From an uncultured Chthonomonadaceae bacterium (lineage in GTDB: Bacteria > Armatimonadota > Chthonomonadetes > Chthonomonadales > Chthonomonadaceae): DNA of 64,000 nucleotides. A program made the translations under genes and the position numbers. Below the pieces are notes generated by a model. The model ran no database searches, was not told where the DNA came from, and was given only the letters and a program-made list of their open reading frames with translations. Positions within the stretch are counted from its first letter, which is position 1. The number at the start of each line of letters is the position of its first letter. The stretch lies in the NCBI GenBank assembly GCA_963817895.1, contig CAWFQB010000004.1:128001-192000 (forward strand), read 5' to 3'. Of this stretch, positions 786-54,997 are shown one piece after another.

Positions 786-1307
786 ATGAGGACAGGAATG
801 TTTCGCAGGAGTGTGGCATTTACCGTGTGCGGAATTGTTACCGGTTTGGCCTTGTGGCCGCGTCCCGCCGGGGCGGAGCATTTTGACATTACCCTGCGCG
901 TGTCCGCGCCGAATAGTCACGGCGAAGCCTTTATGGACACCTCGCCGCCAATCGGCGGCGTCAACAAGCGCCCGCTTGTCAAGGCGAAACCCGGCGAAAT
1001 GGTACGCATTACGTGGAAGATGAAGAACGCTTCGCCGCACGGCGTTTTGAAGAACGTTACCATCCACTTTTTTGTTGTCAAGGAAGCGGAGATCGGCCAG
1101 AAGCCCACGCCCGACCCGTCAGGTGAGGCGGGAATTGTGGATAACAGCGTCACGCAGGACCTCGCGCCCAAATCCGGCGTCAATGGCAGTCTGCGTCTGA
1201 AAGCCCCGGAAGCCGGCAACTATCTCATTCGCGTCCAGAGTGAAGACACCAATGAAGAATTCGGCCACGAACACTTTTCCGCGATTGATTTGCAAGTCCA
1301 GCCGTAA
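786..1307 (+). CDS. Secreted beta-rich hypothetical protein
   Basis: GAGGAG RBS before ATG 786; N-terminal signal peptide ending in AGA-E. Confidence 0.7.
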   Translation: MRTGMFRRSVAFTVCGIVTGLALWPRPAGAEHFDITLRVSAPNSHGEAFMDTSPPIGGVNKRPLVKAKPGEMVRITWKMKNASPHGVLKNVTIHFFVVKEAEIGQKPTPDPSGEAGIVDNSVTQDLAPKSGVNGSLRLKAPEAGNYLIRVQSEDTNEEFGHEHFSAIDLQVQP

Positions 1308-1354
1308 GCGGAACAAGCCTATTTGAACCCTGTTCTGCTTGAAGTCAGTCGAAC

Positions 1355-1398
1355 GAAAATCAGCCACAGGCCGCAGCGATGCGGTTCCTGTGGCTGAT
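1355..1398 (-). terminator. Intrinsic terminator-like hairpin
   Basis: ATCAGCCACAGG...CCTGTGGCTGAT stem followed by TTTTC on the minus strand. Confidence 0.6.
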
Positions 1399-1625
1399 GT
1401 GTTGTACCTTTCGGAAAGCGGCAATTAACATCTGTGCTTGTTGGGCTTGCCCTGCAAACTGTTAAACAACACACCCAATGAACCCTGCGCTATATGAAAC
1501 TCCTCCGTGTAGATAGGGCGCAGGCGTTTGGCTCCTCATGCGCCGATTGTCACGAGGATTATAGCGAGAATGTGGGGAAAGTTCAGGGGGGCGCGGCACA
1601 TTGCGAAATATTTCCTCCTGTCTTT

Positions 1626-4541
1626 TCACCTGCTGATAGCCACTGGCGATAGCCCTTTCGACTGGCGCAATTGCTCAAATCGCCGAACTTCGTCGTTGCT
1701 CACTTGTGTGTTGTCAAGTGAGAGATATTGCAGTTGGGTTAGGGCATTCAGGGGTGTCAGGTCGCTTACTGGGGTGTTAGCGAGGTAGAGCAATTGCAGT
1801 TCGGTGAGTTCACTCAATGGTGTTAAGTCATGCGTCTGCGTGCTGACAAGGGAAAGTTCCAATAGTTTAGTGAGTTTGCTGATAGGAGTCAAATCACTAA
1901 CCTGTGTGTTGTCGGCGGAGAGTATCTGCAGTCGTGTGAATTTGGCGAGAGGAGTCAAGTCGCTTACTTGCGTGTTATCGAGGTCGAGCCATTGCAGTTC
2001 GGTAAGGCTGCTCAGAGGCGTCAAGTCTCGCGTCTGTGTATTCGTAAGAAAGAGCCTTTGTAACTGGGTGAGACTACTGAGAGGAGTCAAATCGCGAATA
2101 TAGGGGCGATACGCTTCCACTGTACCCTCAAATATTTGCAGTCCTGCTAGAATAGAGGGTATCTGGGCGTAGGTGACAACAGCCAGCAGGTCTTCGGGGG
2201 GCAGAAGGGCGGCAAGTTCATTCAGCACGGCGGCGCGATGATCCTGATGTAGGTAGTCGCGCAAACATTCGCGCGCCCGTTCGCTCTGCATCTTGCCCAG
2301 TCCTCGCACACACGCCGCCGCATCCTTTTCCGGCATGTCTTTGCGCCATGCCAGGAACTCTACGGCGGTTTCCCCGGCTCCCGCCAGTGCTTCCGCTTTC
2401 TTGAACGTGTTGATGGGCAGCATCCGCTTGCGCAGACCGCTTACCTGCTGTTCCAGCGTTGTGTCGAGCCGATACGCCAGACGCCCGTGCGCTTTGAGGA
2501 CTATCACTTCACGCCGCTGACGGCATTTCTTGTCCAGCCCCTGCATGTTCATCAGGGCTTCCATTAGGCTTTGCACGTATGTCCGGCTGCTATCCGACCC
2601 GGCGGCAAACAGCAGGATAGGCTCCCACCGCTCCACGTCCCCGGCATCTACCTTCTTCATCAGGAACTCGATCTCACCCTGCTCCACAAACTCCAGCGCG
2701 GCCAGATAGTCGCGCAGGGAGTTGTGAACGAACTCCACATCGTTCTGCCCGCACGGGCGTATCAGGCCGCTACGTTGTTCCAGGCCGCACAACACCTGTT
2801 CCGCTTCCACATAGTCGTGGTTTTGTGCGCCCCCTATCGCGGTCGCCACTTCCCGCGCTGCATTGGCGCGTCCGATACGCGACCCCTCCTCCCGCGCAAT
2901 GAGCCACGCCAGATGCTGCGCCACAGCCAGCCGCATTGTTCTGTTCAGCGCATAGTAGGCGGGCGGGAACACTTCGCGCGGCACTTTATTGAGCCAGTCC
3001 CGGTCAAAAGCCAGCATGTTACACGCGCTCTGGCACAAATCATGCTCGTTTTGCGGCAGCGATTCTCGGTACAATCGGTTCAGAGCGCACAGCAGGGCGC
3101 ACAGCAGCGGATTGGCCGCCAGCAGCCCCACTGCATAGTTTGTCTTCATCTCCGCAAGCAGGCGCTGCTCGCGCTCTGCCAGTTCCTTCACGTCCTCCTT
3201 CGCATCGCCCAACTGCTGCCGCACGGCCTCATGCCAGCGCCGAACACACTCTGCCCGACCAAACGGCGACAGGTCGCGTATCTCGTACTCAACGAAATCC
3301 GCGTCTTTCAGCGCGTTCTCCTCCAACGCCGCCGGTCGGCTCGTTACGACAATCACATTCTCCGCAGAATAATCGCGTGTCAGTCCGCGTATCCATTTCA
3401 GCGCATCCTGCCGCCGCGCCTGCGACAGCTCATCCAATCCATCCAGCAGCAGCAGGCCACGCCCCTCGTTCAAAATACGTTTGGCCCACCCCGGCGGCGG
3501 TTCCTCATCGGGAGCGCCGCCCTTATGAAACTCTTCGGGCGTCGGCAATGTTCCCGTTTCCCAATCCCGCAGCCGCAGGTAAAACGGCGTTTTCTCACGC
3601 CATGCGGACATTCGCCTACCCTCGTCAAACTGCTTTCCATAGTCTTTGTCCACGGGCCGCATTTCGAGTTCCGGCCATTGCCTCTGCGCCGCTTCCAGCG
3701 CCAGCCAGCGCATCATCGTGGTTTTACCACACCCCGCCTTGCCGACAACCAGGGCGCGCTTCGTGGGGGATTTCAGCGCGTCCAGCAGCGCATCCGCCTG
3801 CACATCGCCGGGCAGTTCCGACAGCGACCGCCCTTGAGTCAGCGTCAGCGTCACATACGCTACCGAAAGCGTCTGCTTGCGCGACTCTTTGTGCAGCGGC
3901 TTCCCCTCGATAAACAACTCCACGTAATTGAGCGTGTCCGCCACAACCGCGCGATACTTGCGCTCGAAATCTGCGTATTCCTCCCAATGCGTTGCGGCCT
4001 GCGCGTTTTGCTCATTTAGCGTATCCGTGATATACGCCAGCAATTTCTCCTGATAGTCTGGCATATTCGGAAGCAATGGAAGAAACGCCCGAAGGTTTTT
4101 CACTATCAGTAGGTCGTGATACCTATCGTACTCTACATTGCCGCGCCCCAGAGGAACCGCGCGTTTCGCGTTCCAAAGGGCGGGCAGCCTTTCCAGCATT
4201 ACACGATTTTTCAGCAGTTCCGCAAAGTCGAAACCCGCTTCCATCGTGATCCAAGCCTCTCTGTCTAAGTCATCGATGTCCAGAGTGCAGCCTTCGCGTT
4301 GTGCCTGTTGTTTCACTTCTTTCAGAATTTGTCGCCGATTCTCTTCCAAGCGCAGATTGTGAAGAATGGCTTCCTGTTGCTTTTCCAGCACATCGCTGCC
4401 AAGTGCGAGCGTGCCCGTCACCGCGCCTGCATAATTGCCGGAGCCGACGGCAATCAGCACGTTCGCCACTTTCAGGCCAAAAGCACTTGCAGATTTCAAA
4501 GAAGTCGCTATTGGTTGTTTTCGTTTGTCTCTGTCTACCAC
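1626..4541 (-). CDS. NACHT NTPase with C-terminal leucine-rich repeats (NLR-like STAND protein), paralog 1
   Basis: Walker A GKAGCGKTT, Walker B LLLLDGLDE, VTSRP, NPLL; six 22-aa internalin-like LRRs (DLTPL..L..L..L.L.NTQVS). Confidence 0.88.
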   Translation of the reverse strand: MVDRDKRKQPIATSLKSASAFGLKVANVLIAVGSGNYAGAVTGTLALGSDVLEKQQEAILHNLRLEENRRQILKEVKQQAQREGCTLDIDDLDREAWITMEAGFDFAELLKNRVMLERLPALWNAKRAVPLGRGNVEYDRYHDLLIVKNLRAFLPLLPNMPDYQEKLLAYITDTLNEQNAQAATHWEEYADFERKYRAVVADTLNYVELFIEGKPLHKESRKQTLSVAYVTLTLTQGRSLSELPGDVQADALLDALKSPTKRALVVGKAGCGKTTMMRWLALEAAQRQWPELEMRPVDKDYGKQFDEGRRMSAWREKTPFYLRLRDWETGTLPTPEEFHKGGAPDEEPPPGWAKRILNEGRGLLLLDGLDELSQARRQDALKWIRGLTRDYSAENVIVVTSRPAALEENALKDADFVEYEIRDLSPFGRAECVRRWHEAVRQQLGDAKEDVKELAEREQRLLAEMKTNYAVGLLAANPLLCALLCALNRLYRESLPQNEHDLCQSACNMLAFDRDWLNKVPREVFPPAYYALNRTMRLAVAQHLAWLIAREEGSRIGRANAAREVATAIGGAQNHDYVEAEQVLCGLEQRSGLIRPCGQNDVEFVHNSLRDYLAALEFVEQGEIEFLMKKVDAGDVERWEPILLFAAGSDSSRTYVQSLMEALMNMQGLDKKCRQRREVIVLKAHGRLAYRLDTTLEQQVSGLRKRMLPINTFKKAEALAGAGETAVEFLAWRKDMPEKDAAACVRGLGKMQSERARECLRDYLHQDHRAAVLNELAALLPPEDLLAVVTYAQIPSILAGLQIFEGTVEAYRPYIRDLTPLSSLTQLQRLFLTNTQTRDLTPLSSLTELQWLDLDNTQVSDLTPLAKFTRLQILSADNTQVSDLTPISKLTKLLELSLVSTQTHDLTPLSELTELQLLYLANTPVSDLTPLNALTQLQYLSLDNTQVSNDEVRRFEQLRQSKGLSPVAISR

Positions 4542-4705
4542 TACCTTGCTACCTCGTGCCTCTCCTTATGCCAACAATAATTTCGTTAGAATAGCAACAA
4601 TGAGTTGGACACAATGTGTTCGATCTACTACTCATGGACAACAAGCCGGTAACAGATGAATGGCAAGGGCGCATAGAGATACTCACAGTGCTATAATGTG
4701 GTTAA

Positions 4706-7531
4706 TCATATAATAATTGGTATTGCTGAAAGTCCTTTCGATTGACGAAGCCTCTGAAGGTTCTGAATTTCCTCGTCGCTCACCTGGGTGTTGGTGAGAT
4801 AGAGCATTTGCAGTTGGTCTAGTCCGCTCAGGGGCGTCAGGTCGCTCACCTGGGTGTTGGTAAGATCGAGCCATTGCAGTTGGTCTAGTCCGCTCAGAGG
4901 CGTCAGGTCGCTCACCTGGGTATCATTGAGGACAAGCCGTTGTAGTTGGTTTAGTCCGCTCAGAGGCGTCAGGTCGCTCACCTGGGTGTTGGTGAGATAG
5001 AGCATTTGCAGTTGGTCTAGTCCGCTCAGGGGCGTCAGGTCGCTCACCTGGGTGTTGGTAAGATCGAGCCATTGCAGTTGGTCTAGTCCGCTCAGAGGCG
5101 TCAGGTCGCTCACCTGGGTATCATTGAGGACAAGCCGTTGTAGTTGGTTTAGTCCGCTCAGGGGCGTCAGGTCGCTCACCTGGGTGTTGGTGAGATAGAG
5201 CATTTGCAGTTGGTCTAGTCCGCTCAGAGGCGTCAGGTCGCTCACCTGGGTATCATTGAGGACAAGCCGTTGTAGTTGGTTTAGTCCGCTCAGAGGCGTC
5301 AGGTCGCGAATGTAGGGACGGTACGCTTCCGGTAAGCCGTTATATGTTTGTAGTCCTGACAGAACGAAAGGAATATCAAATATGTTTACCACGGCAAGCA
5401 CATCTTCCGGTAGCAGAATGTTAGCGAGTTCGTCTAGCACAGCAGGACATGGCTTATTATGAAGATAAACCAAAAGAGCATCGCACGCTTGTTCGTTCTC
5501 TATACGCCCCAGGCCGCGTACGCAAGTAATTGCAATATCTTCCGTCTGGCACTCATGCCATTCCAAGTACTCGACGGCTGCCGCTCCCGCTTTCGCAAGT
5601 GCCTCCGCCTTCTCTATCGTATCTACTGGCAGTAATTGCTTGCGAATGGTGGTAATTTGTGTTGTCAACTCCGCGCCTAACGGTATCGGAATGTGCGCGG
5701 CCACTTTCAGTGCAATCAGTTCACGATAGTGGTAGTCGTCAGAATTTTGCCTGCGTTTATCTAATATCTTAGTTAATAACGCTCGTCCGAACTCATAGTT
5801 ACGGTCAGTTGCAGCGGCAAACAGCAATACTGGCTCCCATCGTTCCAAATCTCCCGAAGCTATCTGCCTTACCAGAAAAGCGGTCTCGTTACGTTGCACC
5901 AGAAGGAGCGATGCCAGATAGTCACGCAGAGCGTTGTGGACGAACTCAATTTCATCTTCATCCACTTCCCGCAGCAGACTACTCCGGTCAATCAAGCCTT
6001 TCAGCACATTTTCGGCTTCTGTCTGGTCGGGATTCGCCGCGCCGTGCAGCGTGGTCGCCACAATGTCTATCGCCCCCGCCCTTGACAGCGCCGGGACGCT
6101 TTCTTTCACCAGCGCGTAGGCGAGATGCTGCGCCACGAGCAGGCGCGTCGGATAGTTCAAATTGTCGTAATCGGGAAGGAAATTTTGTGTCGCTATGCCC
6201 TGAAGCTGGTCGCGGTCGTACAGCAGCATTTTGCACGCGCTTTCGCACAGGTCGCGCAGGTTTTGCGGCAGCGAGGCGACATACACGCGGTTGAGGGCGC
6301 ACAGTAGCGCGCACAGCAGGGGATTGGCCGCAAGCAGGGCAATGGAGCGGTTGGTTTGCAGTTCATGCAGCAATCGCGTCTGCTTCTCATCCAGGTTTGC
6401 AATTCTGTCCGGCAGGACGCTAAGGCGTTTGCGCACCGCCGCATGCCACTTCTGCACGAACTCCACTTTGCCCGACGGCGACAGGTCACGCACCCCGTAC
6501 TCGCGGAAGCCTTCTGCGGCCAGCGCGTCCGTCTTCACTGCCTGCGGACGGCTGCTCGCCACAAACACGTTTTCGGACGGCAGGTTTGTGGTCAGTTCCC
6601 GTATCCACTCCAACGCGAGTAGACGGCGCGCGGGCGCAAGTTCATCCAGGCCATCCAGCAGGACAAGGCCGCGCCCCGCATCCAGAATACGCTGCGCCCA
6701 CCCCGGCGGCGGTTTATGCCCCGTAATTCCCCAGGCGTGAAACCCGTCCGTGTCCGGGAACGTCCCGTCCTTGCAGTCGCGCAACCGAATGAGAAACGGG
6801 ATTTTGCTGCGCCACGATTCGGCTGTCCCCCGTTCGCGCTCCAATCCGCGCCGCATCGCTTCTTCCGGCTCCGCGTCCATATCCACCTCGCGCATACGGG
6901 CCGCTTCCAATCCGATCCAGCGCAGCAGCGTGGTTTTGCCGCACCCTGCCGGCCCGACCACCAGAACACGGCGCGGACCTTCCGGCAGATTGTCCAGCAG
7001 GCTGTCTGCCGGTACACTGCCCACCAGACTTTCGCCCTCCCGTCCCCGCGTCAATTCCAGGGTGACGTACGCGACCGTGAGTTCCTGCCGGCGCGCCTCA
7101 TCGGGAACATCCTGCCGCTCGATAAACAACTCCACGCGATCCAGTTTCTTCATCAGGGCATCGCGGTACGTGTATTCGAACTGCAAGTCATGCGCTTGCT
7201 CTTGACTGAGTGGTACTACTGTATGTGAAAGTGATACATCAAAGGATGTTGTTAGAGGTGGCTCTACATCATCTGGCTCTAAGTCCAAGCCAACGGCCTT
7301 GAATAAGGCACGAATAGAACTTAATCGTACAGTTTGAGCATTTTGTCGCCCATATCTAATAGTTCGCACTGTGCTTCGTCCAAGATTAGAACTTTGTGTT
7401 AAAAGTTCCTCTGTCCATCTTTTTTGTTGAGTACCATCGCTAGTCGTAGGCAGACCTGACCCTTGAGTAATGGCTACCTCAAGTCGCGCTACGCCCTTTT
7501 GCGATAAAATGTAAGCATTTTCTTTTGTCAT
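4706..7531 (-). CDS. HTH-like N-terminus + NACHT + LRR protein (NLR-like), paralog 2
   Basis: Walker A GPAGCGKTT, Walker B LVLLDGLDE, SSRP, NPLL; eight 22-aa LRRs; N-terminal WTEELL...LGRSTVRTI resembles an HTH. Confidence 0.88.
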   Translation of the reverse strand: MTKENAYILSQKGVARLEVAITQGSGLPTTSDGTQQKRWTEELLTQSSNLGRSTVRTIRYGRQNAQTVRLSSIRALFKAVGLDLEPDDVEPPLTTSFDVSLSHTVVPLSQEQAHDLQFEYTYRDALMKKLDRVELFIERQDVPDEARRQELTVAYVTLELTRGREGESLVGSVPADSLLDNLPEGPRRVLVVGPAGCGKTTLLRWIGLEAARMREVDMDAEPEEAMRRGLERERGTAESWRSKIPFLIRLRDCKDGTFPDTDGFHAWGITGHKPPPGWAQRILDAGRGLVLLDGLDELAPARRLLALEWIRELTTNLPSENVFVASSRPQAVKTDALAAEGFREYGVRDLSPSGKVEFVQKWHAAVRKRLSVLPDRIANLDEKQTRLLHELQTNRSIALLAANPLLCALLCALNRVYVASLPQNLRDLCESACKMLLYDRDQLQGIATQNFLPDYDNLNYPTRLLVAQHLAYALVKESVPALSRAGAIDIVATTLHGAANPDQTEAENVLKGLIDRSSLLREVDEDEIEFVHNALRDYLASLLLVQRNETAFLVRQIASGDLERWEPVLLFAAATDRNYEFGRALLTKILDKRRQNSDDYHYRELIALKVAAHIPIPLGAELTTQITTIRKQLLPVDTIEKAEALAKAGAAAVEYLEWHECQTEDIAITCVRGLGRIENEQACDALLVYLHNKPCPAVLDELANILLPEDVLAVVNIFDIPFVLSGLQTYNGLPEAYRPYIRDLTPLSGLNQLQRLVLNDTQVSDLTPLSGLDQLQMLYLTNTQVSDLTPLSGLNQLQRLVLNDTQVSDLTPLSGLDQLQWLDLTNTQVSDLTPLSGLDQLQMLYLTNTQVSDLTPLSGLNQLQRLVLNDTQVSDLTPLSGLDQLQWLDLTNTQVSDLTPLSGLDQLQMLYLTNTQVSDEEIQNLQRLRQSKGLSAIPIII
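4776..5306 (-). repeat. Eight 66-bp tandem LRR-coding units of three near-identical variants
   Basis: AGGTCGC recurs at 4839, 4905, 4971, 5037, 5103, 5169, 5235 and 5301. Confidence 0.97.
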
Positions 7532-7722
7532 ACAACGTTCTCCTTCGTGTTCATATAGATATTCTACCCCAAATGACGAAATTTCTCAAACAAATTCAAA
7601 CAAACTGAAACAAACAGCATTATGGTGTCGTCTGCAAGTACATACGCTAGGTACTGAAGATGAAAATCAGTACGTTTCTCGGACCGTGATCTATCTATTG
7701 TGATAAGAGAGGACATGCAACA

Positions 7723-8022
7723 ATGACACGCCAGGCACTCCATATCTTCTTTGCCGCGTTTAGTGGCGCTCTAAGCGTTTACGTTTTCGCGCTGGCAGCC
7801 AATTACCAGAAGGCACCTTCCCAGTTCCATATGCCTTCATTCAATGATGTGATCGCCAAGATCATTATAGTAACATTCTACACCATCATTCATCTCTTGG
7901 TTGCTGTCCTCAGCGCAAACAAGAAACAAGCCAGCAATGAAGACGTCACCAAACAGGTGGCAATCGCGTTTCTCGCTAATATGGTCTTGGAACTTGTGCA
8001 GGCTGTGGTCTCTGGTCATTGA
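7723..8022 (+). CDS. Small membrane protein (about 3 TM helices)
   Basis: GAGGA RBS; three hydrophobic segments; divergent from the NACHT gene; lower GC. Confidence 0.65.
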   Translation: MTRQALHIFFAAFSGALSVYVFALAANYQKAPSQFHMPSFNDVIAKIIIVTFYTIIHLLVAVLSANKKQASNEDVTKQVAIAFLANMVLELVQAVVSGH

Positions 8023-8411
8023 TTTTGCATCATGTGACTGCTTGATTCTAACCTTATCATTGGTCAGCCTGCCTACAAGTAAGAAGGTAGCCTATGGCCG
8101 GATGAGGGTAGAATCTCATGCCTGCACAATCGCCTCCAAGGTTCAAATTTATCTGAAATATTTTCGCGAAAACAGTCTGGGGGTACTTCTAAAATCGCCG
8201 CCCAGTGTTAATATACGGCGTGTACAAAAACCGAATACCGTCCCCACTAACAAGGGAGGGAGGTGCAAAAGATGCCTGTTCACATCCGACCGCCCTGACG
8301 CTTACGAGGTCACGACGCCTCTACTGACAATTAAATAACACAACGAGACCGAGTGCTGAAAGCGCTGCATTGCCATTATTTCGACAACGTCTCCCTATAT
8401 TGTTAGGACAC

Positions 8412-8462
8412 AAACGCGAACAGGAGCCACCCCATAGACCGGGAAGACTCCTGTTCGCATTT
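8412..8462. terminator. Terminator-like hairpin downstream of hppA
   Basis: GCGAACAGGAG...CTCCTGTTCGC with AAA/TTT flanks. Confidence 0.55.
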
Positions 8463-8524
8463 ACCCATCAATTCAGAAGAAAAAGGAACTTCCTCCTTCA
8501 CCCTTCCACACTTCATCCTTTGCC

Positions 8525-11035
8525 TCAGTGCGCCATTGTGGCCGCTTCCTGTGGCGGGGCGGCGTTGTCTATGTCGTCCGCGATGGAGCCGCGCTTGCTG
8601 AACAGGATCGCGCCCGTCAAAGCCGCGCCCACGACGCCGCAGATCAGGATGCGAACCTTCACGCCAATGTCCTGAATCACGATCCCCGCGATGAGGATGC
8701 CTGTCAGGTTCATAACCTTGATGAGCGGGTTCAGGGCGGGGCCGGCGGTGTCCTTGAACGGGTCGCCAACCGTGTCGCAGATAATCGCCGCTTTGTGGAA
8801 CTCGGTTCCCTTGCCGCCGAACAGGCCGTCCTCAATCTTCTTCTTGGCGTTGTCCCACGCGCCGCCCGAATTGGACAGCAGGACGGCCAGCAGTTGCCCG
8901 CTGACAATCGCCCCGGCAAGATACCCGCCCAATGCCGCCGCGCCCGTTTGCGGATTGCGGAAGCCCAGCCCGAAGCCGACGAGAATCGGCAGGCCGATGG
9001 CGAGAATGCCCGGTCCGAGCAGTTCCTTTTGCGCCGCTGCGGTGGAAATAGCGACGCAGCGCGCATAATCCGGCTTGCTGGTTCCCAACATGATGCCCGG
9101 ATCGTTGCGGAATTGGCGGCGAACTTCTTCAATCAGTTGAAAGGCCGCGCGTCCGACCGCGTTGATGGCGAAACTGGAGAACAGATACGGGAGCCGCGCC
9201 GCCAATCAGCAGGCCGATGAACACTTCCGGCACTTCCAGCCGGATACCCACGTTCCAACAGCCCCGCGTCCGTCATAAACGAGCGGAACAGGGCGACGGC
9301 CGCGATAACCGCTGTGGCAATCGCAAAGCCTTTGGTCAGGGCTTTGGTGGTGTTGCCGACCGCGTCCAGTTTGGTCACGATGCGGTGTCCCGACATGCCG
9401 CTCTTGGTTTCCGTTCGCCCTGCCGCCGCGTCCTCTTCCAACACGCCCGACATCTCGAAAATGCCGTTCGCGTTGTCGGTAATCGGGCCGAAAGTGTCCA
9501 TTGCCAGAATGTAGCCCGTTGTCGTCAGCAGTCCCAACCCGGAAAGCGCGATGCCATACGCGGCGAGCAGCGGGTTGTTGGGGAAGATGGACAGGGCGAA
9601 TACCAGGGTCAGGGCAATGGCGAGCGCGCTCCAGACGGAACTCTCCAGCCCATAGGAAAAGCCGGAAATAATCATCGTGGCCGGCCCGGTTTTGGAGTTG
9701 TACGCGATTTCGCGGACAGGCTTCTTTTCAACGGACGTAAAGTATTCCGTCATCCAGCCGATGACAAGCGCGAGAATGATACCGAGGAACGTACACGCGA
9801 AGAAGCGCCACCACTCCACAACCGCATGCCCATTGGCATCCGGCAACTCTACGCCATGCGCTCGGACGCCATTCACCACATTGAAGACATCGAAGTACAG
9901 ATAGGAGCCGATGCCGAAGAACACAGTTGCGAGAGCGGCAGAAACATAAAAGCCCGTGTTGATGGGCTTCATGGGATCGAGGTCTTCGCGGTCTTCGCCT
10001 TTCACGGCCAGAACGCCGATAATACTGGCAAACACGCCCGCCGCGCGCACAATCAGCGGGTACATAATCAACTGCAACGCGCTGTGCGCAAGCGCGGTGC
10101 TGCTTCCCCAACTGCTTGCGGGAACAATGGCCGCGCCCAGAATGATGGCGGCAACCAGCGTCACTTCGTAGCTCTCGAACACGTCGGCGGCCATGCCCGC
10201 GCAGTCGCCCACGTTATCGCCCACGTTGTCGGCAATGGTTGCGGGGTTGCGGGGGTCGTCTTCGGGAATACCCGCTTCCACTTTGCCCACAAGGTCCGCG
10301 CCCACATCAGCGGCTTTGGTGAAGATACCGCCGCCCACGCGCATAAACAGCGCGGCGAGCGACCCGCCGAAGCCGAAGCCGACCAGAATCAGCATCGCCT
10401 TTTCTTTGTAAATCAGAAAGACCAGACACGCGCCGACAAGCCCAAGCCCGACGGTCATCATGCCCGACACGGCCCCGGCCCGGAACGCGGTTTCCAATGC
10501 GCCTTTAAACGTGGTGCGCGCCTGATTTGCCGTGCGCTGGTTGGCAAGGGTCGCCATGCCCATGCCGACATAACCGGCGACATACGAGGCCGCGACGCCC
10601 AGAATGAAGAACAGCGATACGCCCAACGCTTCATTTATGCCATAGCCAAGTTTGTCCTGACCCTTGTACAGCACAAACAGCAGGACGGCAATCACGACGA
10701 CAAGCGGCGACATCGTCTTCACCTGCTGCAGCAGATACGGCCAGCGCGCCATCTCGAATGGCTTTGCCGACCTCTTCCATTTTCGCCGTGCCTGCGCTCT
10801 GGCTTTTCACCTGCCCGAACCAGACAGCGCCCACGATCAGCGAAATAATACCGGAAATCATCGCAAACCAGATCAGACTGGTTTCCGAAGAAGTGAACGT
10901 GGGAAGCTGGACGGCTTCCGAAGCATGCGCCGCGTTTGCCAACGTCAGCAGCCCCAATCCCATCAAAGGCGGAAGCCAGCTTGCCTTCCGCCGCGCGCAC
11001 CCGGGCCGCCAAAGCCCCATACGGCGTTCTCTCAT
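8525..11035 (-). CDS. hppA: Membrane-bound H+-translocating pyrophosphatase, likely K+-independent (frameshifts near 10745 and 9245)
   Basis: [49 protein letters not shown] (Lys) is the K+-independent signature. The pieces lie in three frames. Confidence 0.93.
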
Positions 11036-12541: not shown

Positions 12542-15260
12542 TTAGTAGATGTCGCCGACGCCGACGCCGAGGGCTTGACCGGCGGGGCCGCGATTGAAGC
12601 GGTTGGTGGAGGGGAGGCCTTTCACCCGGAGCGCGAAGTAGATTTGGCGGTCGCTGTAAAAGCTGTTGGGGTTTTCGGAGTAGGACACGCTGGCTTCCAG
12701 ACAGTCCCATTCATGCACCAGTTCCGCCGCCCGCGACTCGAACAGGCCCGTGCCGCCGTTGAAGCGCAGTAGTCCCGCGAACCGCCAGCCGCGCGCAAAG
12801 GGAACGTCGAACTGCGTGTTGATCTGGCTGAACTTGCGCCGAATACCCGGTTGCTGCGGGTCCACGCGGGAAACCAGATCAAACGCCAAATCGTTCGCGC
12901 CGCGCAGTCGCATTTGATTGGTGAGCGCGAGGAATTTGCCCGTGTTCGGGTCGTAACTGGTCAGCGAGTCGAAGCGGAGGGTACTGCGGGGCTGCCACAT
13001 CAGGCGGGCGGACAGGGTTTGAAACGGCCTGCCGCTCGTTTGCCCCGAGTAAATCATAGCCGGTTCTTAGCGTGGCCTGAAAATGCTTGTCGTCCAGATA
13101 CCCGCCCTCGCCGGTCATATTAGTGGGAGCGGGTGTACTGGTCGAAAGTAAACGGTGTGCCGCCTTCCGGCTGGTCGTATAGATAGTTGATGTCGAAGCC
13201 GCTGCGCCCCAGAATGTGCTGCCGCAATCGCGTGTTGTTGCGGGTTTCATACTGCGCCGCGCCATCCCCGTACAACCGCTGCTCGAATCCGCCGCCCGTG
13301 ACAATTTCCGTTCGTCCCCGTATAACGGTTATCTGAGGAATGTTGAAGCCGACGAGCAGGCGTTCGGTAAATGTTTTGCTGGCGGGTTCGTTGAATTTGC
13401 CCAGATCGGCGGTAAAGGTTGTCGGCAGTTGCCGCAGCAGTCCGCCCTTGAAGTTGATGGTATCCGCTGTGAACTGGAATTCGGGCAATTTTTCCAGTGT
13501 GCCAATCGAAGTTCCCGCCGACTGAAAGCCGATGGGCGTACTCTTGTTGGCAGACAGCATGTACTGGTACTCGCGGGCCGTATGCTGAAACTGGAACTGC
13601 GTATCGGCCCGGGCGGTACGGTTGATGGTATCCGATAGCGGGCGTAGTGTCGGTGGCAATGGTGGACTGCGTGTTGAGCAGGCGCGACACGTCAATCTGG
13701 TACGACAGGGAGTTGCGGTTGCTGCCCTGCGACGCGAACTGAAACGAGTTGCGCAGGCTGCCGGAAATCTGATTGGTGGAGTAGGTCGTCGAGTCGTTGG
13801 TCTGGATGTTGATGGAGCCGAGCAGATTGACGCCATGTACGCTGTCATCGTGGGCAAGATCGAAGCGCGTGTTTTGCGTGGTCTGCCCGGAAGAAACCAG
13901 ATAGCTTTGCTTGGTCAGTTCCGTGCTGAAGCCGAAGCGGTTGTTGCCGCCGAACCCCTGCTGATGCCGCAAACTGGTGGTGAAGTTGCGGTTGAATCCG
14001 CTGCTGGTATAGCCCTGAATGGTGAAAATGCCGCCGCTTGCCGGACCAAGCCCCGTTCCCAATTGCGGCAGGCGCGGCCCAATGTTGCCGTATCCGTAGG
14101 CCGAAGTGACGGCTCCGCCCGGATCGCTGCTCAGACTGCCCGCCCCGCTGAATCCGCCGCCATACCCGTACCCGGACGTATCGAACTGGCTGGCCTGTTT
14201 GCCCGCAAGATACTCCTGCTCGAAGCGCAGGCGTTCGCCGAGTTTCTGCGTGAGCGCTGACCTGCACGTAACTGGCCGCGTCCTGTCCGATGGGGAACTC
14301 GTAGGGGAAACGTCCGTAATAGCCCTCCTGCACGTTCTGGCCGAATTCGGGAAAGTAGCTGGGGCGGTCGCGACGTTTGGGCGGTTTTTTGTCAAGTGGT
14401 ATGACGATGTAGGGAATGGTTATCAGTTTCACGCCGAACAGAATAACGCTTGTCTGGTGCAGCACAAGCCGCTGACCCGGCAGCAGATAGGCATCGCGTG
14501 ACCGCAGTTCGTAATGGTGAAACGGCTCGATACACGTTGTCTCGGTCGTGTTGTCGGCAAACGTGGTTCCCTGCCGGTTGCCGAACACATCGCGGCCCGT
14601 AACGAACACGTTGTCGTACACCCGGTTTTGCAGCACGTCGGGCGTCAGGATGCTGCGCGGATTGTCCAATCTGTAGCGGCGAGTTTGCGGGTAAAAGTGA
14701 ATGGTATCGGCGTAGGCGGTGGTGGTGGCCGTGACGATGCGCGCGTTTCCGGTGAGAATAACTTCCGTATTGAGATTGCCGGACGCGCGATCTGCGGTAA
14801 TGGTAGCGCCATTTCCGGCGATACTCACGTCTTCAGCCTCGAAACTACCTGTTATTGGGTTCGCGCTGTAAACTTTAGCCGTAATTTCCGGCAATTTCGC
14901 TTCGGGCGGGACATTATTGGGAGTGACGGCATCGGCAGGCGAGGGCGTTCCCTGCCGGGCTGCGGGCTGCGGGGCATTGCCTACAGGCGGACTTCCGGCA
15001 GGGGAGGCTTGACCTTTCGTTACAACCGGCGTCGTACCCGGCGCGGCAGGCGGCGGTTGTGTTCCGGCTTGTGTTTGCTGCGCTTGCGCCGGACTGCTGT
15101 TCCCTGTCCCCTGTTCCCTGTTCCCTGAAGCAGGCGTGACGGGAGGAGCCTTGTCCTGACAGGCAGAAAGGCGGGGGAGCAGGGCTAAAATAAGGGCAGC
15201 CAACAGCGCAGCGCGGGGGGGTACGATGCGGGGGCGATGGATGGTTGGGAACAGCGTCAT
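12542..15260 (-). CDS. LptD/OstA-like outer-membrane protein (several frameshifts)
   Basis: Signal peptide; ITADR..., TTC...HYELR motif typical of LptD; beta-barrel-like C-terminal pieces in successive frames. Confidence 0.72.
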
Positions 15261-29693: not shown

Positions 29694-30721
29694 GCCTGGT
29701 TGCCGAAGCGGGCGCAACGACCGGGATTGGCCGCGCCTGTGATGCGGTGCAACTGAGCCGCGCCCGCTTCTACCGGGAGCAACACGCTGGTACGGGCACA
29801 ATCCAAGAAGGCGTCCTTGTTCCCAAAGCACAACGGGGTTCTCCTCGCCGCTTGTCGGAAGAGGAACGCGCCCTGTTGCTCAATCTACTCTTGTCGGAAC
29901 GCTTTGTAGACGCTTCGCCCCGGCAGGTGTATGCGCAATTGCTGCAAGAAGGCGTGTATCACGCTTCCTATCGCACGATGTATCGCCTGCTGCACGAACA
30001 CCAAGCCATCTGTGAGCGTCGGCGGGTTCGCAGGCATCCGGCGTATAGCAAACCTGAACTTAAGGCAACCGGCCCTAATCAGGTGTGGACATGGGACATC
30101 ACCTACTTGAAGACGCCCATTCGGGGTCGCTTCTATTACTTATATGTGGTTATGGACATCTACAGTCGTTATGTGGTCGGCTGGATGCTCGCAGACCGGG
30201 AGTGTCAATACCTGGCGCACAAGCTGCTGCAAGAAACCTGTCGTAAATACAACATCGCGCCTAACCAACTCACCCTCCATGCGGATCGCGGCGGGCCGAT
30301 GAAAAGCCAGTCGGTAGCGCAGCTCTTACTTTCGTTGCAGGTGACCCGTTCGCACAGCCGCCCGCGTGTCAGCAACGACAACCCGTACTCGGAAGCCGGG
30401 TTCAAAACGATGAAGTACAGCGCCTACTTCCCGGAGCGCTTTAGCAGCCAGGAAGACGCGCAGACGTTCTGCCAGGACTACTTTGTCGGGTACAATACGT
30501 GCCACCACCATACCGGCTTGGTGTTGCTTACGCCCGAACAGGTGCATTTCGGCGAAGCAACGCAGGTATTGGCGCAGCGGCAAGTCACGTTAGATAACGC
30601 CTATGCCGCGCATCCGCAACGCTTTCGAGAGCGTCCGCAGGCGGGGCAGTTACCCGACGTCGTCTGGATCAATGCGCCTGCGTTGCCCGTTGGCGAAGGC
30701 ACAGCACCGGTTGCCGGTTGA
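29690..30721 (+). CDS. IS3 transposase OrfB (rve/DDE)
   Basis: PNQVWTWDITY, HADRG, DNPYSEA.F; lies in the -1 frame relative to OrfA. Confidence 0.92.
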   Translation: MSLVAEAGATTGIGRACDAVQLSRARFYREQHAGTGTIQEGVLVPKAQRGSPRRLSEEERALLLNLLLSERFVDASPRQVYAQLLQEGVYHASYRTMYRLLHEHQAICERRRVRRHPAYSKPELKATGPNQVWTWDITYLKTPIRGRFYYLYVVMDIYSRYVVGWMLADRECQYLAHKLLQETCRKYNIAPNQLTLHADRGGPMKSQSVAQLLLSLQVTRSHSRPRVSNDNPYSEAGFKTMKYSAYFPERFSSQEDAQTFCQDYFVGYNTCHHHTGLVLLTPEQVHFGEATQVLAQRQVTLDNAYAAHPQRFRERPQAGQLPDVVWINAPALPVGEGTAPVAG

Positions 30722-30937
30722 GTGGCGAGGAATGACTGCTCGCTACATAAAAATACTTTCGCTTTTTGTCTCAAAATCCTTGACACATTCCGCAGCAGTA
30801 TTTTATCTGTCTGAGAGTTAGCAGGCGGATGATCTGTAGGTATGGAATTGATAGCAATCTAATCATTCGAACTCAAGGTTCCAGTTTCATATATGAGCGA
30901 CAGCGGTAATTCCGGTAGAATCAGGACCGAGAGTGTC

Positions 30938-33900
30938 ATGGATACACAACATTGCTTGCAGGCGCTAGCGGCACATGGCATTACAGAAGCCGATAGCGCT
31001 ATGCTGTTGCCTCTATTGTTGGATGGATTGCGTCTCAGCCCCGACTCGGATCGCGCTTTTGCCGCGTTTGAACGCTGGCTTGCCGCGCTGGAAACGCCAC
31101 GCGACTATCTGCCCCTGTTGCAATCGCTGGATGTCCTCAACCGCTTCTGCCTCGTCACCGGAAGCAGTCAGTATTTTGCCGACCTGCTGATTCGTAATCC
31201 TGACGATATTCATATTCTTGTACACCCGGAAGGCTATGGCGAACGGGAGACGCCCGCGCATCGCTATCGCGAAGTCTCCCGACTGATGGAGGGCTGCGAC
31301 ACACCCGAACAGCAGCGCGACGTTCTGCGCCAGTGGAAAGCCCGCGAGATGCTGCAAATCGGTGTGCGCGACCTGCTCGGACTGGACGATATGCCCACAG
31401 CCGCCCGCGAATTTTCTAATCTGGCCGATGCTTGCGTACAAATGGCGCTGGAGATTGCATACGCGACGCTGGAGGAGAAAGGAGAAGGGAAAAAGGAAAA
31501 AGCAACGGATAGTGGGTCTTTCTCCTTTCTCCTTTCTCCTCTCTCCTCTCCTCTGACCGTTTTTGCTCTGGGCAAGCACGGCGGGCAGGAACTCAACTAC
31601 AGCAGCGACATTGATCTGATTTTCGTTCATGCCGATGGATTGCCCGCTTACATCACATTGGAAAGCGGCAGGCGAATGGAATCGCCTGCGTATCTTGCGA
31701 AATTGGCGGAAACGTTGATTAGCGTTTTGAGTGAAGACGGCGGGCAGGGGAATGTGTTCAGGGTAGACATGCGCTTGCGCCCGGAGGGACGGTTTCGGGG
31801 CGTTATCGCGGTCGCTGACGGGGTATCGCGCTTATTATGAAAAGTGGGCGGAAAACTGGGAGCGGCAGGTGTTGCTTAAAGCGCGGTTTGTAGCCGGAAA
31901 TCGCGCGCTTGGCGACGCTTTTATGGCGATGATTGCGCCGCTTGTGTACCGCCGCCAGATTTCGAGCGCGTTTCTCAATGATATTCGTGTCAACAAACGG
32001 CGTATCGAGCAGACCTGCGCCAAAAAGGGCGAAACCGAAACCAACATCAAAACGGGGTGGGGCGGCATCCGCGATATTGAATTTATCGTACAACTGCTGC
32101 AATTAGAGTTCGGGGCTACGCATCCGCGTTTGCGAACTCCCAATACGCTTACAGCCCTGCGTCGCCTGAACGAAGCCAACTTTTTGACGGATAAGCAGAC
32201 CGAAGACCTGGAGGATGATTACCGGTGGCTGCGAACGCTGGAACACCGGCTTCAACTGCTGCACAACTTTCAAACGCAAACTCTGCCGCCCGAATCCAAA
32301 CCACAGGAGCGCGAGTCTTTAGCCCGTCGTATGGGCTTTGCCGATCTTGAAAATTTTGAGGCGGAACTGAAAACTCGCCGGACGCGCGTTCGTAACTATC
32401 TGGACACGCTGTTTTACGATCAGGAACGCCGCTTTTTCCCCGCAATGCCCGCTGCTGTTGATCCCCTCTGGAAGGATGTTTCCATACTCCTTGCCGATCT
32501 GGAAGGGGAAGAAGGGCAAATACAACTGCGCGAGAAATTGACGCAGGCCAGTTTTCGGGATGCATCCAACGCCCTGCGCCTGCTGGAACTCATGCGCCAC
32601 AGTCAAGAGTTTCAGGACGCGCCGCCGGTTGTTTCCGAACGGTTCCTGAATCTCGCGCACTCTCTGCTGGACACGATTGCGCATAGTCCCGACCCTGACG
32701 CGGCTCTGGCGGGCATCGAAGCGCTTGCCGTGCCATATCGCGACCCGCTGTACATGCTGTTCGAGGGCCGTCCCGATATTATGTGGCGGCTTGTCCGGCT
32801 TGCCTGCGTCCCCGTCCTTATCAATAGCCTCGCGAAACATCAGGAGTGGCTGTACCCTCTGCTCAACGAGGATGAAGCGGTTCCCGAAGCCCTGCGCGAA
32901 CCGGGCGAAGATACGGAAAACAGCGAAACTCTTTCCGCCCGCTATGTGCAGGAGTTGTCCGGTCGTATCGGCAAACTGCGCAATCGGGACGCGCAATGGA
33001 AGATGATCGCCCTGTTTTATCAGCGGGAACGGCTGCGTATCGGGGCGCGGGACGTATGGGATGAGGCCGATGTTGCCGACGTGATGAAACGCCTGACCCG
33101 ATTGGCCGAGTCCACGCTGCATATTCTGCTGACGCTATGCGCCCAATCGCGGGCTGAAGCGCATCCTCGCCCCGAATGGGCGCAAACCGTCCTGAACCGG
33201 GTTGCCATAGTCGGGCTTGGACGATTGGGCGGGGCGGAACTCAATTACAGCAGCGATTGGGACATGCTGTTCGTGTATGACGTGGAACGCCCGCGCGATG
33301 ACGAATCGCGCGGCGAACGGAACGCCCTTGCCGCCGGGTTAGCGCAGGACGTACTCGCCGCCATTGACGCGCTGAACCTGCGGGGCGCGAATATCGAGGT
33401 AGATTTGCGCTTGCGCCCGTGGGGAAGCAAAGGCAATCTGATTTATACCACGCGCGGCTATCTGGATTATTTCAAAAATCACGCCGAAACATGGGAGCGG
33501 CAGGCGGTGTTGAAATCGCGTTATGTGGCAGGCAATCCAACCGTAGGCAGGCGATTGGAGCGCGTGTTGCGGGCCGTCAGCGCGGGCAGAGGCGTAACGC
33601 CCGAAGAGGAATCTGCCATCCACGCCATGAAAACCCGCATCGAAACGGAACGCTTAAAACCACAGGAACGCGAAACCGATTTGAAACTCGGCAACGGCGG
33701 CCTGAGCGACATAGAATGGCTGGCGCAACGGCTGCAATTACGGCACGGCCCGCAGCACCCGAATGTTCGCGCAACCTCCACGCTACGCGCCCTTGACGCG
33801 CTGGAAACCCTTCACGCCCTCGACCGCTCGGAAGTCAACGTTCTCACATCCGCGTACCGCCTCCTGACGCGCGTTCGCAACGCCATGACCCTGCTTGCCG

Positions 33901-34064
33901 GAACCCCGACCAACGTATTCCCCGCCGACCCGCAGCGCAGGCGCGTCCTTGCCCGTTTGCTCGGCTACGAAGACCGCCTCGTCGTCCGCGCCGAACAGAT
34001 GCTGCAAGAGGACGTGCAGGCCGACATGCAGGAAGTCCGCCGCATCTTCAGCCGGAGATTTTGA
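30938..34064 (+). CDS. glnE: Glutamine synthetase adenylyltransferase (frameshift near 31800)
   Basis: Two NTase domains: GKHGGQELNYSSDIDL...VDMRLRPEG and GRLGGAELNYSSDWD...VDLRLRPWG; GGIRDIEF. Confidence 0.92.
31472..31551. repeat. In-frame heptamer hairpin (GGAGAAA)n/(TTTCTCC)n in glnE
   Basis: Encodes EEKGEGKKEK...SFSFLLSPLSSP. Confidence 0.85.
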
Positions 34065-35098: not shown

Positions 35099-37757
35099 AT
35101 GGAAAATACAGCCCCATTCGAAAATTCTAAATCGAAAATCGAAAATCCTTATGTTGACTCGCTGTGGGAAGAGTATGCCGAGATTGATATTGCGGATGTT
35201 GTGGTAGATATTGACGCGCCGGATTTGCAGGATTCGTACTCGTACCGCGTTCCTGAAATTTTGCAAAATACGCTTGTCGCAGGCGCGTGTGTGCATATCC
35301 CGTTTGCGGGGCGGGAGACTTTGGGCTACGTGCTGGCGCGGCGCAAACTGCCCTCCAACGATCCGCTGTGCGGCAAACTGAAAAGCATTATCGGGATTGT
35401 GGAAGACGCCATAACCATCAATTCCGAACAACTGCACATCATTCAGTGGATGAGTCAGCGGTATGTGTGCGATCTGCTGGACGCGCTGCGCTGTGTCGCG
35501 CCCGCGAATTTAGGCGCGCGGGTGGCGACGGTTGCGCGGCTGGCGGATACAAGTTACCGGGGCGTAGATGTAGGCGCGTCCATTCCGCAGGCGCATGTTC
35601 TGGAAACGTTGCGGGCATTGGATGGCGAGGCGGAGGTGGACGCCCTGCGCGAAGCCGCGCATCTGCCCAACTTTGCGGGCGCGTATGCCGCCCTGCTGAA
35701 AAAAGGATTGCTGATCGAATCCCGCACCATTGTTCGCGCCAAAACAGTGGGCAAAATGCGTCGGGCGTACACACTGGGCGCGGCGGCAGTCGCGCTGACA
35801 CAGGGCGGGAGCGTGGGCAACCGCAGCCCGCAGCAGCAGCGCATCCTCAACGAACTGGTACAACGCGCCCGCCACAATGAAGGCCCCATTCCCGGCGATG
35901 AACTGGTACGGGTCAGTCAGGCGTCTGCCCGCGTCCCTGCGCGGACTGGTGGACAAGGGACTGGTGCAGGCGCATGAGATCATGGTGCGCCGCGCGCCCG
36001 TATCCGCGTCCGGCGAACGCACGGTCGCGCCCGTTCTCACGCCCGGACAGCAGAACGCGACGGACAAATTACGCGCCTGTCTGGAAAGCGGCGAAACGCA
36101 AACCGTTCTGCTGTTCGGCGTCACGGCAAGCGGCAAAACTGAAGTGTATCTCAATGCCATTGCGCACACGCTGGAACAGGGCCGTAGCGCGATTGTGCTT
36201 GTGCCGGAAATCGCGCTGACCGCGCAGATCGTGGATACGTTTGTCGGAAGGTTCGGCGAACAGGTGGCCGTTCTCCATTCCAAATTATCCGAAGGCGAGC
36301 GGCACGACGAGTGGAGGCGGATGCAGGCGGGCAAGGCGCGTATCGTGGTCGGCGCGCGTTCCGCCATTTTCGCGCCTGTGCAAAATGTCGGTCTGATCGT
36401 GATGGATGAGGAACACGAGGCGTCCTACAAGCAGGAGAACACCCCCCGTTATAACGCCAAAGACCTCGCCATGGAACGCGCCCGCCTGAGCCGCGCCACG
36501 CTTGTTCTTGGCAGCGCGACGCCTTCGTTGGAGAGTTACTTTGCGGCTACGCCACAGGGAGTAGGGAGTAGGGAGTGGGGAGTAGGAAAAACCAGCGCGC
36601 GTATCGAAGAGCCGCGAGACTCGTATGCAGCGAAAAACCATCATAAAGCGAACTCCTACTCCCCACTCCCTACTCCCTACTCCCTTATCACCATGCCTGA
36701 CCGCATAGACAACCGCCCCCTGCCCCGCGTGGAGGTGGTGGATTTGCGCGAAGAGTTTAAGAAGCAGAAGACGTTGTTTTCCGAGCGGCTGGTTGCGGCG
36801 ATGATGGAGCGATTAAAAAAGAAGCAGCAGACCATTCTGTTTTTGAACCGACGCGGCTACGCGCAATTCGTGCTGTGCCGGGACTGCGGCTGGACGGCGA
36901 AGTGTCCGAATTGCGCCGTGTCGCTGGCGTACCACAACTATGAGCGTTCGTTGAAGTGTCACCATTGCGATTACAACGGGCGCGTACCCCTGAAATGCCC
37001 GGACTGCGGCGGCATGAAGGTGAAAGCGTTCGGCATCGGCACGGAAAAGGTCGAGGAAGAGGTTTTGCGCGTGTTTCCCACCGCCCGCGTCGCCCGCATG
37101 GATCGGGATACCACTTCGCAAAAGGGGGCGCATACCCGGATTATGCGGGCATTTCGGCAGGGCAACTCGGACATTCTTATCGGGACGCAGATGGTGGCGA
37201 AAGGGCTTGATTTCCCCAACGTTACGCTCGTCGGCGTTATCAGCGCGGACACGGCCATCAACATGCCGGACTTCCGGGCAGCCGAACGCACGTTTCAATT
37301 GCTGACGCAGGTGGCGGGGCGCGCGGGGCGGGGCAACACGCCCGGTGAAGTGATTATACAAACGTTCAGCCCCGACCACTACGCGGTGCAGGCGGCCATT
37401 CAGCACGACTACCCCCGCTTTTACAAGCAGGAGATTCTATTTCGGCAGGAATTGAAGTATCCGCCGTACAGCCGTTTCGTCAACCTGATTTGCGCCGATG
37501 AGATCGAAGCCAAAGCGCAGGCGCGTTCTAACGCCCTCGTTGTCGCGCTCGAACGCCTCAACCCGCCGGATGTGGAGATCATCGGGCCAAGCCCCGCGCC
37601 GCTCGCCCGCCTGAAAAACCAGTACCGCTTCCACGTCGCCCTGCGCGCTCCGGTAGACTATCCGCTTTCCGAACTGGTGCGCTCCGCCATTGCCTGCCTT
37701 ACTCCGTCTGACCGCCTGGGCTTGTACGTGGACATTGATCCTTTGAGCATGGCGTAG
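35099..37757 (+). CDS. priA: Primosomal protein N' (frameshift near 35935)
   Basis: GVTASGKTEVY, DEEHE, GSATPS, Zn-finger CxxC pairs, GTQMVAKGLDF, QVAGRAGR. Confidence 0.95.
36556..36685. repeat. In-frame heptamer hairpin (GGGAGTA)n in priA, perfect 32-bp arms
   Basis: 36556-36587 is the exact reverse complement of 36654-36685. Confidence 0.95.
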
Positions 37758-54886: not shown

Positions 54887-54997
54887 AGTAGGGAGTAGGG
54901 AGTAGGAAGTAGGGAGTAGAGAAAACGCGGCTGGTTGTGCCGCTCACCCCGCATGACGCGGAGCCTTCTACTCCCTACTCCCTACTCCCTACTCCCT
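54887..54997. repeat. Heptamer hairpin (GGGAGTA)n between ffs and dnaX
   Basis: Arms 54887-54920 and 54967-54997. Confidence 0.92.

Follow-up and report, generated by a model that had tools for sequence, protein, structure and literature searches.

How can a receptor-like bacterial protein keep the repeats of its putative sensor almost identical in DNA while the residues exposed on that sensor change? The question is raised by a gene in a 64,000-nucleotide stretch of the genome of an uncultured Chthonomonadaceae bacterium (contig CAWFQB010000004.1, positions 128,001 to 192,000; henceforth the window, with positions counted from its first letter). The gene, open reading frame 1 (ORF1; 4706..7531, minus strand), encodes a 941-residue protein of the NACHT family that carries an array of eight 66-bp leucine-rich repeat (LRR) units near its C-terminus. 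From the anatomy of this array and from its homologues, we argue that recombination through a constant part of the repeat likely both rearranges the units and keeps them near-identical, and that the exposed residues are likely under selection for change.

The repeat array and its host protein

The eight units lie in frame on the minus strand at 4784..5311. Tandem Repeats Finder reported a repeat at 4775-5307 with a period of 66 (8.1 copies, score 765) and, over the same span, one with a period of 198 (2.7 copies, 96% match), and translation of 4706-7531 resolved eight 22-residue units of three types, whose heads read RLVLND (A), MLYLTN (B) and WLDLTN (C). Type A occupies units 1 (5311-5246), 3 (5179-5114) and 6 (4981-4916), type B units 2 (5245-5180), 5 (5047-4982) and 8 (4849-4784), and type C units 4 (5113-5048) and 7 (4915-4850), all on the minus strand. 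The A-B-A-C-B-A-C-B order and the near-identical DNA of the three types, first noticed in a preliminary description of the window, are thus borne out. The A-C-B block is duplicated as described there, but its two exact copies (starts 4775 and 4973, together 4775..5161) span 189 bp rather than 198, as the last unit continues into the cap. Units of the same type are 0-1 base apart; the exception is unit 1, at 3-4 bases, since its first codons are still part of the region before the array. With a mean unit identity of 0.86 in protein and 0-16 of 66 bases differing, the array has the repeat identity of the high-internal-conservation (HIC) class, in which repeats are 70-100% identical within a protein.

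The differences between types are confined to one part of the unit. A and B differ by 12 bases, A and C by 11, and B and C by 4, and all of these differences sit in a 30-bp stretch (unit positions 31-60) that corresponds to codons 11-20 in the register VSDLTPLSGL-xQLQxLxLxx-TQ. The remaining 36 bp are constant apart from the first codons of unit 1 and a single silent site (CCT/CCC), at which T or C occurs independently of unit type. By a rough estimate, the chance that 12 differences all fall within one 30-bp stretch is ~0.002. Most of the differences affect the exposed LxxLxLxx positions, as had been claimed, but the variable stretch also holds an N/D change just upstream of the motif, and its conserved Leu codons carry 2-3 silent changes.

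What kind of protein carries the array? ORF1 comprises an N-terminal domain resembling a helix-turn-helix (HTH), a NACHT NTPase, a helical/HEAT-like region, the LRR array and a cap. The NACHT core (~residues 186-365; 6437..6976, minus strand) contains a Walker A motif, GPAGCGKT (193-200), and a Walker B motif, DGLDE (293-297), while the C-terminal capping helix and tail (4709..4783, minus strand) resemble the tail of the adjacent paralog ORF2 (..EQLRQSKGL..). NACHT (59.8 bits in ORF1, cut-off 26.7) and LRR_4 (103 bits in ORF1) exceed the Pfam cut-off in ORF1 and ORF2 alike, and G196, G198, K199, D293, E297 and His532 of the winged-helix region are invariant in the family alignment. An AlphaFold model of ORF1 from a 58-sequence alignment (mean predicted local distance difference test, pLDDT, 83) shows NACHT, helical domains and an LRR solenoid (solenoid pLDDT 95-98), and the best Foldseek matches are NOD2, NLRP3 and NLRC4 (E ~1e-18, TM ~0.33). 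ORF1 thus combines a NACHT module with a C-terminal repeat superstructure, two of the features that mark bacterial relatives of NOD-like receptors (NLRs), and on these domain matches and the predicted fold it is an NLR-like NACHT-LRR protein with the array as its LRR end. The beta-strand of an LRR forms the concave binding face. In the model, the short LRR strands (755-757, 777-779 and so on) coincide with the variable residues, whose supposed exposure agrees with this predicted placement.

The N-terminal ~100 residues (7232..7531, minus strand) have a lower GC content and do not resemble the helical N-termini found in the closest homologues. They had no match in Pfam, and a word-index search returned only ORF1 itself; its relatives comprise one close match, placed before a different NACHT-like start, plus a pair of HTH-repeat proteins. 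A structure search with the low-confidence model of the region (pLDDT 55) gave many XRE HTH folds at Z 2.6-4.6. We tentatively assign this weakly XRE/Cro-like segment as an XRE-type HTH.

Homogenised arrays and exposed residues across the family

Is ORF1 alone in having such an array? Among its best 120 homologues, 93 have a P-loop motif, and 82 of those contain at least three 22-residue units. Mean unit identity is at least 0.70 in 16 of the 82, and identical units occur in 12 (ORF1 counted each time). Within the 16 homogenised proteins, LxxLxLxx positions 3, 5, 7 and 8 vary at 0.51-0.68 and the others at 0.01-0.35. For the DNA comparison 159 loci were fetched and the 37 with at least three 22-residue units on the plus strand were kept, the counts leaving out loci that were cut or had other repeat lengths; nine of the 37 arrays, from records labelled with several phyla, have a mean DNA identity of at least 0.80. 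In one genome (G020) the contig ends within the array, whose units differ solely at positions 2, 3, 5 and 7. Among named records, the closest ORF1 homologues carry the labels Chthonomonadaceae and Fimbriimonadales; no second allele of ORF1 was found, its sequence cluster having a single member.

Units resemble each other more within than between genes, the pattern of concerted evolution. Per 66 bp, they differ within genes by 7.8 bases in ORF1, 3.7 in the G020 gene and 16.8 in an ORF2 orthologue from a related genome (G002), and between genes by 19.7-23.9; this result rests on distances, as a tree of single units had low support. ORF2 (1626..4541, minus strand; 971 residues, 49% identical to ORF1) behaves differently, with 27.0 differences within the gene. 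Its six LRR units (1704-2099) have the heads and the DNA divergence listed at the outset, but they differ from each other by 16-31 bases per 66 bp with a framework that varies too, and not just at the positions that vary in ORF1. Since ORF1, the G020 gene and the G002 orthologue have units closer within than between genes and ORF2 itself is diverged, homogenisation comes and goes among close relatives.

The G002 orthologue of ORF2 (~81% DNA identity, at a different locus) also shows that parts of these proteins change at different rates. Identity is 87% in the NACHT region and 65% in the LRR, with matches at 12 of 30 exposed and 61 of 85 framework residues and 19-30 differences between units in matching position; the LRR thus diverges faster than NACHT between the orthologues. 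As a separate observation, three of the four NACHT-LRR homologues of G002 (loci L022, L023 and L024) are frameshifted or contain stops, reflecting either rapid birth and decay in the family or sequencing errors.

Does amino-acid change at the exposed face exceed silent change? Positions 2, 3, 5, 7 and 8 were set beforehand as exposed, ten arrays were pooled (the nine at 0.80 or above plus ORF1), and the final unit of each array was left out, since it merges with the cap. The proportion of nonsynonymous changes (pN) at exposed positions is 0.366, and that of synonymous changes (pS) is 0.122 in codons 9-22, with roughly double this value in codons 1-8. The ratio of exposed pN to pS of all sites is 2.2 (array bootstrap 1.8-3.2) and, taken against pS of codons 1-8 only, 1.5 (1.04-2.4), while framework pN/pS is 0.45. 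A pairwise codon model on a coarse grid gave an omega of ~3 at exposed positions and 0.25 elsewhere, all 500 bootstraps lying above 1.3. In the pooled arrays, amino-acid change at exposed sites therefore exceeds silent change ~2.2-fold.

Could the arrays instead have expanded passively, by recent slippage duplication without selection for diversity, the exposed sites being merely the least constrained ones of any LRR? We consider this unlikely. Over 60 runs of a neutral simulation with an identity filter of 0.80-0.92 the ratio ranged from 0.68 to 1.22, below the pooled value of 2.22, and a simulation with an omega of 3 gave a median of 2.04. Passive expansion also leaves unexplained why 12 differences, silent ones among them, are packed into 30 bp when the adjoining 36 bp have 0-1. 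In its favour, non-homogenised homologues likewise vary most at positions 3, 5, 7 and 8 (0.79-0.84), and several results that weigh against our interpretation agree with it or limit its reach. Exposed pN in the ORF1 array alone (0.28) is lower than pS of the variable stretch (0.56), so that amino-acid change does not surpass local silent change there, and the array has just three unit types. Seven arrays at 0.69-0.77 identity have a ratio near 1 (1.2; 0.84-1.7), compatible with neutrality or saturation, and 66 of the 82 homologues, as well as the adjacent ORF2, are not homogenised. The pairwise tests, moreover, ignore multi-base mutations, shared ancestry and assembly chimeras. The per-site comparison of nonsynonymous and synonymous change that had been suggested for this locus thus gives an excess in the ten pooled arrays and not in ORF1 by itself, and positive selection here therefore rests on the family. 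As pS outside the variable stretch of ORF1 is 0.06, its signature is that of an old variable segment in a frame that was homogenised recently, a pattern consistent with crossovers within the constant 36 bp.

Probable rearrangement of units, the search for donors, and the insert

If recombination rearranges units, near-identical proteins may differ in their arrays. Unit number or order differs in seven of ten multi-member homologue clusters. The members of cluster 1 show six arrangements of 6-9 units but differ at only 0-1 of the 827 residues preceding the LRR; all of the arrangements are deletions of the commonest form, a pattern that an assembler could also produce. Firmer is the variation in cluster 8, whose members are 93-94% identical before the LRR and have 4, 5 or 8 units with different heads. 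Rearrangement is called into question by clusters 3, 9 and 10, in which unit number is kept, and by the other six variable clusters, in which the unit differences may be assembler errors because the proteins are otherwise 0-1 residue apart. Short-read assemblies are described as omitting or inventing such repeats (PMC12222747, in the text available), and many of the arrays analysed may derive from such assemblies, which are unreliable for repeats of this kind.

The same doubt extends to ORF1: the second A-C-B block or the unit order might be spurious and the true gene have fewer units. An exact 189-bp repeat exceeds typical short reads, and in G020 and in another genome, G006, a contig end cuts through a homologous array. 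One DNA sequencing run shared 0.08 of the words, and its contigs cover none of 4636-5979; no RNA dataset was among the matches listed. We nevertheless think an artefact quite improbable. The source assembly (7.48 Mb, 81% complete) consists of 14 contigs with an N50 of 778 kb, which suggests long reads; the reading frame is intact, and the silent T/C site tells apart copies of the same type. Even with one block removed, three distinct unit types with an identical framework would remain.

A more elaborate possibility is that the array was put together from a cassette library, in the style of lamprey variable lymphocyte receptors (VLRs) or of antigenic variation, or by a dedicated recombinase. 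The modular look, with variable 30-bp segments between identical 36-bp arms, invites this idea, and the preliminary description had spoken of three interchangeable cassettes. A search for copies of the units elsewhere (blastn, word size 7) found none outside the locus in the assembly of this genome, and an exact-pattern search found none in viral contigs; matches across the genus reach just 67-74%, and no recombinase was seen among the ORFs of the insert that carries ORF1. A donor may lie in the unassembled part since the genome is 81% complete, yet programmed assembly strikes us as highly improbable, and the cassette claim did not hold up in this sense. The array could have arisen from an A-C-B triplet in ~four events, with two rounds of duplication, the loss of a single C unit and a silent substitution, whereas duplication from A-B alone would require four substitutions in one unit and zero in its neighbours. 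Because gain and loss of A-C-B with one base change yield the observed order, the array records several gains and losses and cassette assembly is not needed; the idea of a recombination-driven array stands, as the order requires several recombination or slippage events.

We therefore return to recombination through the constant part as the probable mechanism. Operating through the 36-bp constant part, unequal crossing-over, slippage or conversion would homogenise the units and rearrange the 30-bp segments, and, because crossovers would fall mostly in the constant 36 bp, the variable segments would keep their older silent differences. As predicted from the family, the LRR would bind a protein of an invader, probably a phage, or hold the ATPase closed; by analogy with bNACHT and NLR biology, ligand binding would trigger nucleotide exchange and oligomerisation, with the N-terminal HTH-like domain serving as output. 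Two findings speak against such a role in defence: PADLOC returned P-loop matches only, with no defence-system model beyond that, and neither gene flanking the insert is a defence gene.

The two flanking genes are convergent and adjoin in another related genome (G001; ~200 bp apart), so the ~7.2-kb segment between them (1308..8524) is an insert. It contains the two NACHT-LRR genes, a small hydrophobic ORF and one copy of a dispersed element. The hydrophobic ORF (7723..8022, plus strand; 99 residues) is divergent from ORF1, with its HTH-like domain, and possibly encodes a regulated partner; it had no family match at cut-off in Pfam or NCBIfam. NCBIfam gave no system-level match for the locus, Rfam gave no match across 1200-9000, and a scan for promoters and terminators returned results at chance level. 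Short motifs at 8072-8116 and 1354-1403 recur near the ends of NACHT-LRR loci in this genome or G002. Elsewhere in the window, 7-8-bp tandem arrays, some of them inverted pairs, lie at 15097, 31518, 36556-36685, 54887-54997, 58798 and 63106-63183, and several core genes, including those at 8525-10752 (minus strand), 12542-15260 and 30893-34064, are apparently split over two frames. The pyrophosphatase among them is a single frame of 825-836 residues in G001 and G002, and the split frames suggest indel errors in the source assembly.

The dispersed element (8251..8400, plus strand) marks the right edge of the insert and is specific to the genus. Its copies combine a strong Shine-Dalgarno sequence, an ORF of 8-9 codons ending in R-x-P-stop (the stop in register in 43 of 46 copies), a short hairpin, a longer stem and a sharp 3' end; covariation in the stems is weak (1 of 18 pairs). 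With blastn, 47 copies were found in this genome, many in G001 and G002 and none in 58 other relatives. The DNA upstream of the copies has a mean GC content of 0.53 versus 0.59 and carries accessory genes (SUKH-4, ankyrin, DNA methylase, NACHT-HEAT and AAA_21), with no transposase among the 29 ORFs scanned in these flanks. In G002 a copy lies near each of the four NACHT-LRR loci, and another is found at the same pyrophosphatase gene end with different DNA upstream.

Two further NACHT genes lie elsewhere in the genome. One (contig C6, 376307-377236) ends in about ten 99-bp HEAT units that are 93% alike and form mosaics of two-state segments (RRY/RAS/RWS, E/Q, QT/RL, LN/CK and N/K), a clear case of segmental shuffling. 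The other, a NACHT-LRR gene (L025; contig C7, 85427-89900), has diverged 23-residue LRRs and is split by an insertion sequence whose transposase end matches that at 29747-30721 of the window.

Relation to known NLRs

How new is such an array? ORF1 carries the LRR version of the known HIC NLRs, here known from a single allele. It resembles the fungal HIC NLRs (Podospora het-e/het-d, HNWD) in joining a NACHT ATPase to C-terminal near-identical repeats with few hypervariable positions, and in the fungi the gain, loss and shuffling of units is attributed to unequal crossing-over, in the available portions of both sources (PMC13449251, PMC12222747). The fungal repeats described there are 42-residue WD40 units, whereas those of ORF1 are 22-residue LRRs in a bacterial protein. 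No exchange between the paralogs was seen in our case, the units of ORF1 and ORF2 being 18-30 of 66 bases apart.

Near-identical repeats in bacterial NLRs have already been published for WD40 and for tetratricopeptide repeats (TPR), so the idea is less new than first implied. As far as the consulted part of Dyrka et al. goes (bioRxiv 10.1101/2020.01.06.895854), bacterial WD40 and TPR NLR-like proteins have repeats 80-90% alike, for which rapid diversification was proposed, as here for ORF1; prokaryotic NLRs are typically without LRRs, and the evolutionary regime is suggested only. A 2026 survey (PMC13449251, likewise consulted in part) reports near-identical repeats across the domains of life, LRR proteins included, and assigns 22% of ATPase-bearing repeat proteins to this type, close to our 16 of 82 NACHT-LRR homologues; its section 12 pools four repeat types with no site-level test, and examples of bacterial LRRs may be present in its figures or supplement. 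A passage of PMC8195603 mentions LRRs that evolve rapidly on bacterial AP-GTPases. The main text of a survey of STAND proteins (10.64898/2026.01.04.697583) does not use the term LRR. For bacterial NACHT proteins, a search that largely did not reach subscription journals, figures and supplements turned up no publication describing LRR arrays that are both homogenised and positively selected.

ORF1 also shares the conserved winged-helix His with the anti-phage bNACHT proteins, among them the LRR-bearing bNACHT16, and, if its tentative HTH-like segment is an effector, their effector-NACHT-sensor layout. In the sections of Kibby et al. consulted (bioRxiv 10.1101/2022.07.19.500537), LRRs are listed among the sensor types and HTH among the effector types, and no homogenised LRR arrays are described; the bNACHT proteins are anti-phage, whereas ORF1 is known from sequence alone. 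In repeat length and fold the array matches internalin-type 22-residue LRRs (InlA, the Chlorobium Roco LRR), with a root-mean-square deviation of 1.7-2.5 A from InlA over ~190 residues (Foldseek). Only the repeat class is shared with internalins, as ORF1 is a predicted cytoplasmic NACHT fusion and scores 128 bits against an NCBIfam cut-off of 1600.

The array thus extends a known mechanism to LRRs, the principle being known from fungi and outlined for bacteria, and adds no new mechanism. Bacterial NLR-like proteins studied to date mostly sense conserved phage proteins. It is possible, if rather doubtful, that a widespread bacterial NACHT-LRR clade alternates between a homogenised and a diverged state, and that within populations it rewrites the LRR binding face by recombination of the 30-bp specificity segments through the 36-bp arms, free of donors and of a dedicated enzyme; if true, this would be a VLR-like combinatorial receptor in bacteria, and in ORF1 the three swappable segments and an HTH output would make recognition directly programmable. 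The family-wide excess of change at the predicted binding face is evidence of a type that the literature had merely suggested for bacteria, and three unit types on an identical scaffold offer a simple system for asking whether repeat shuffling alters recognition. Both bear on how bacterial NLR-like proteins acquire new specificities.

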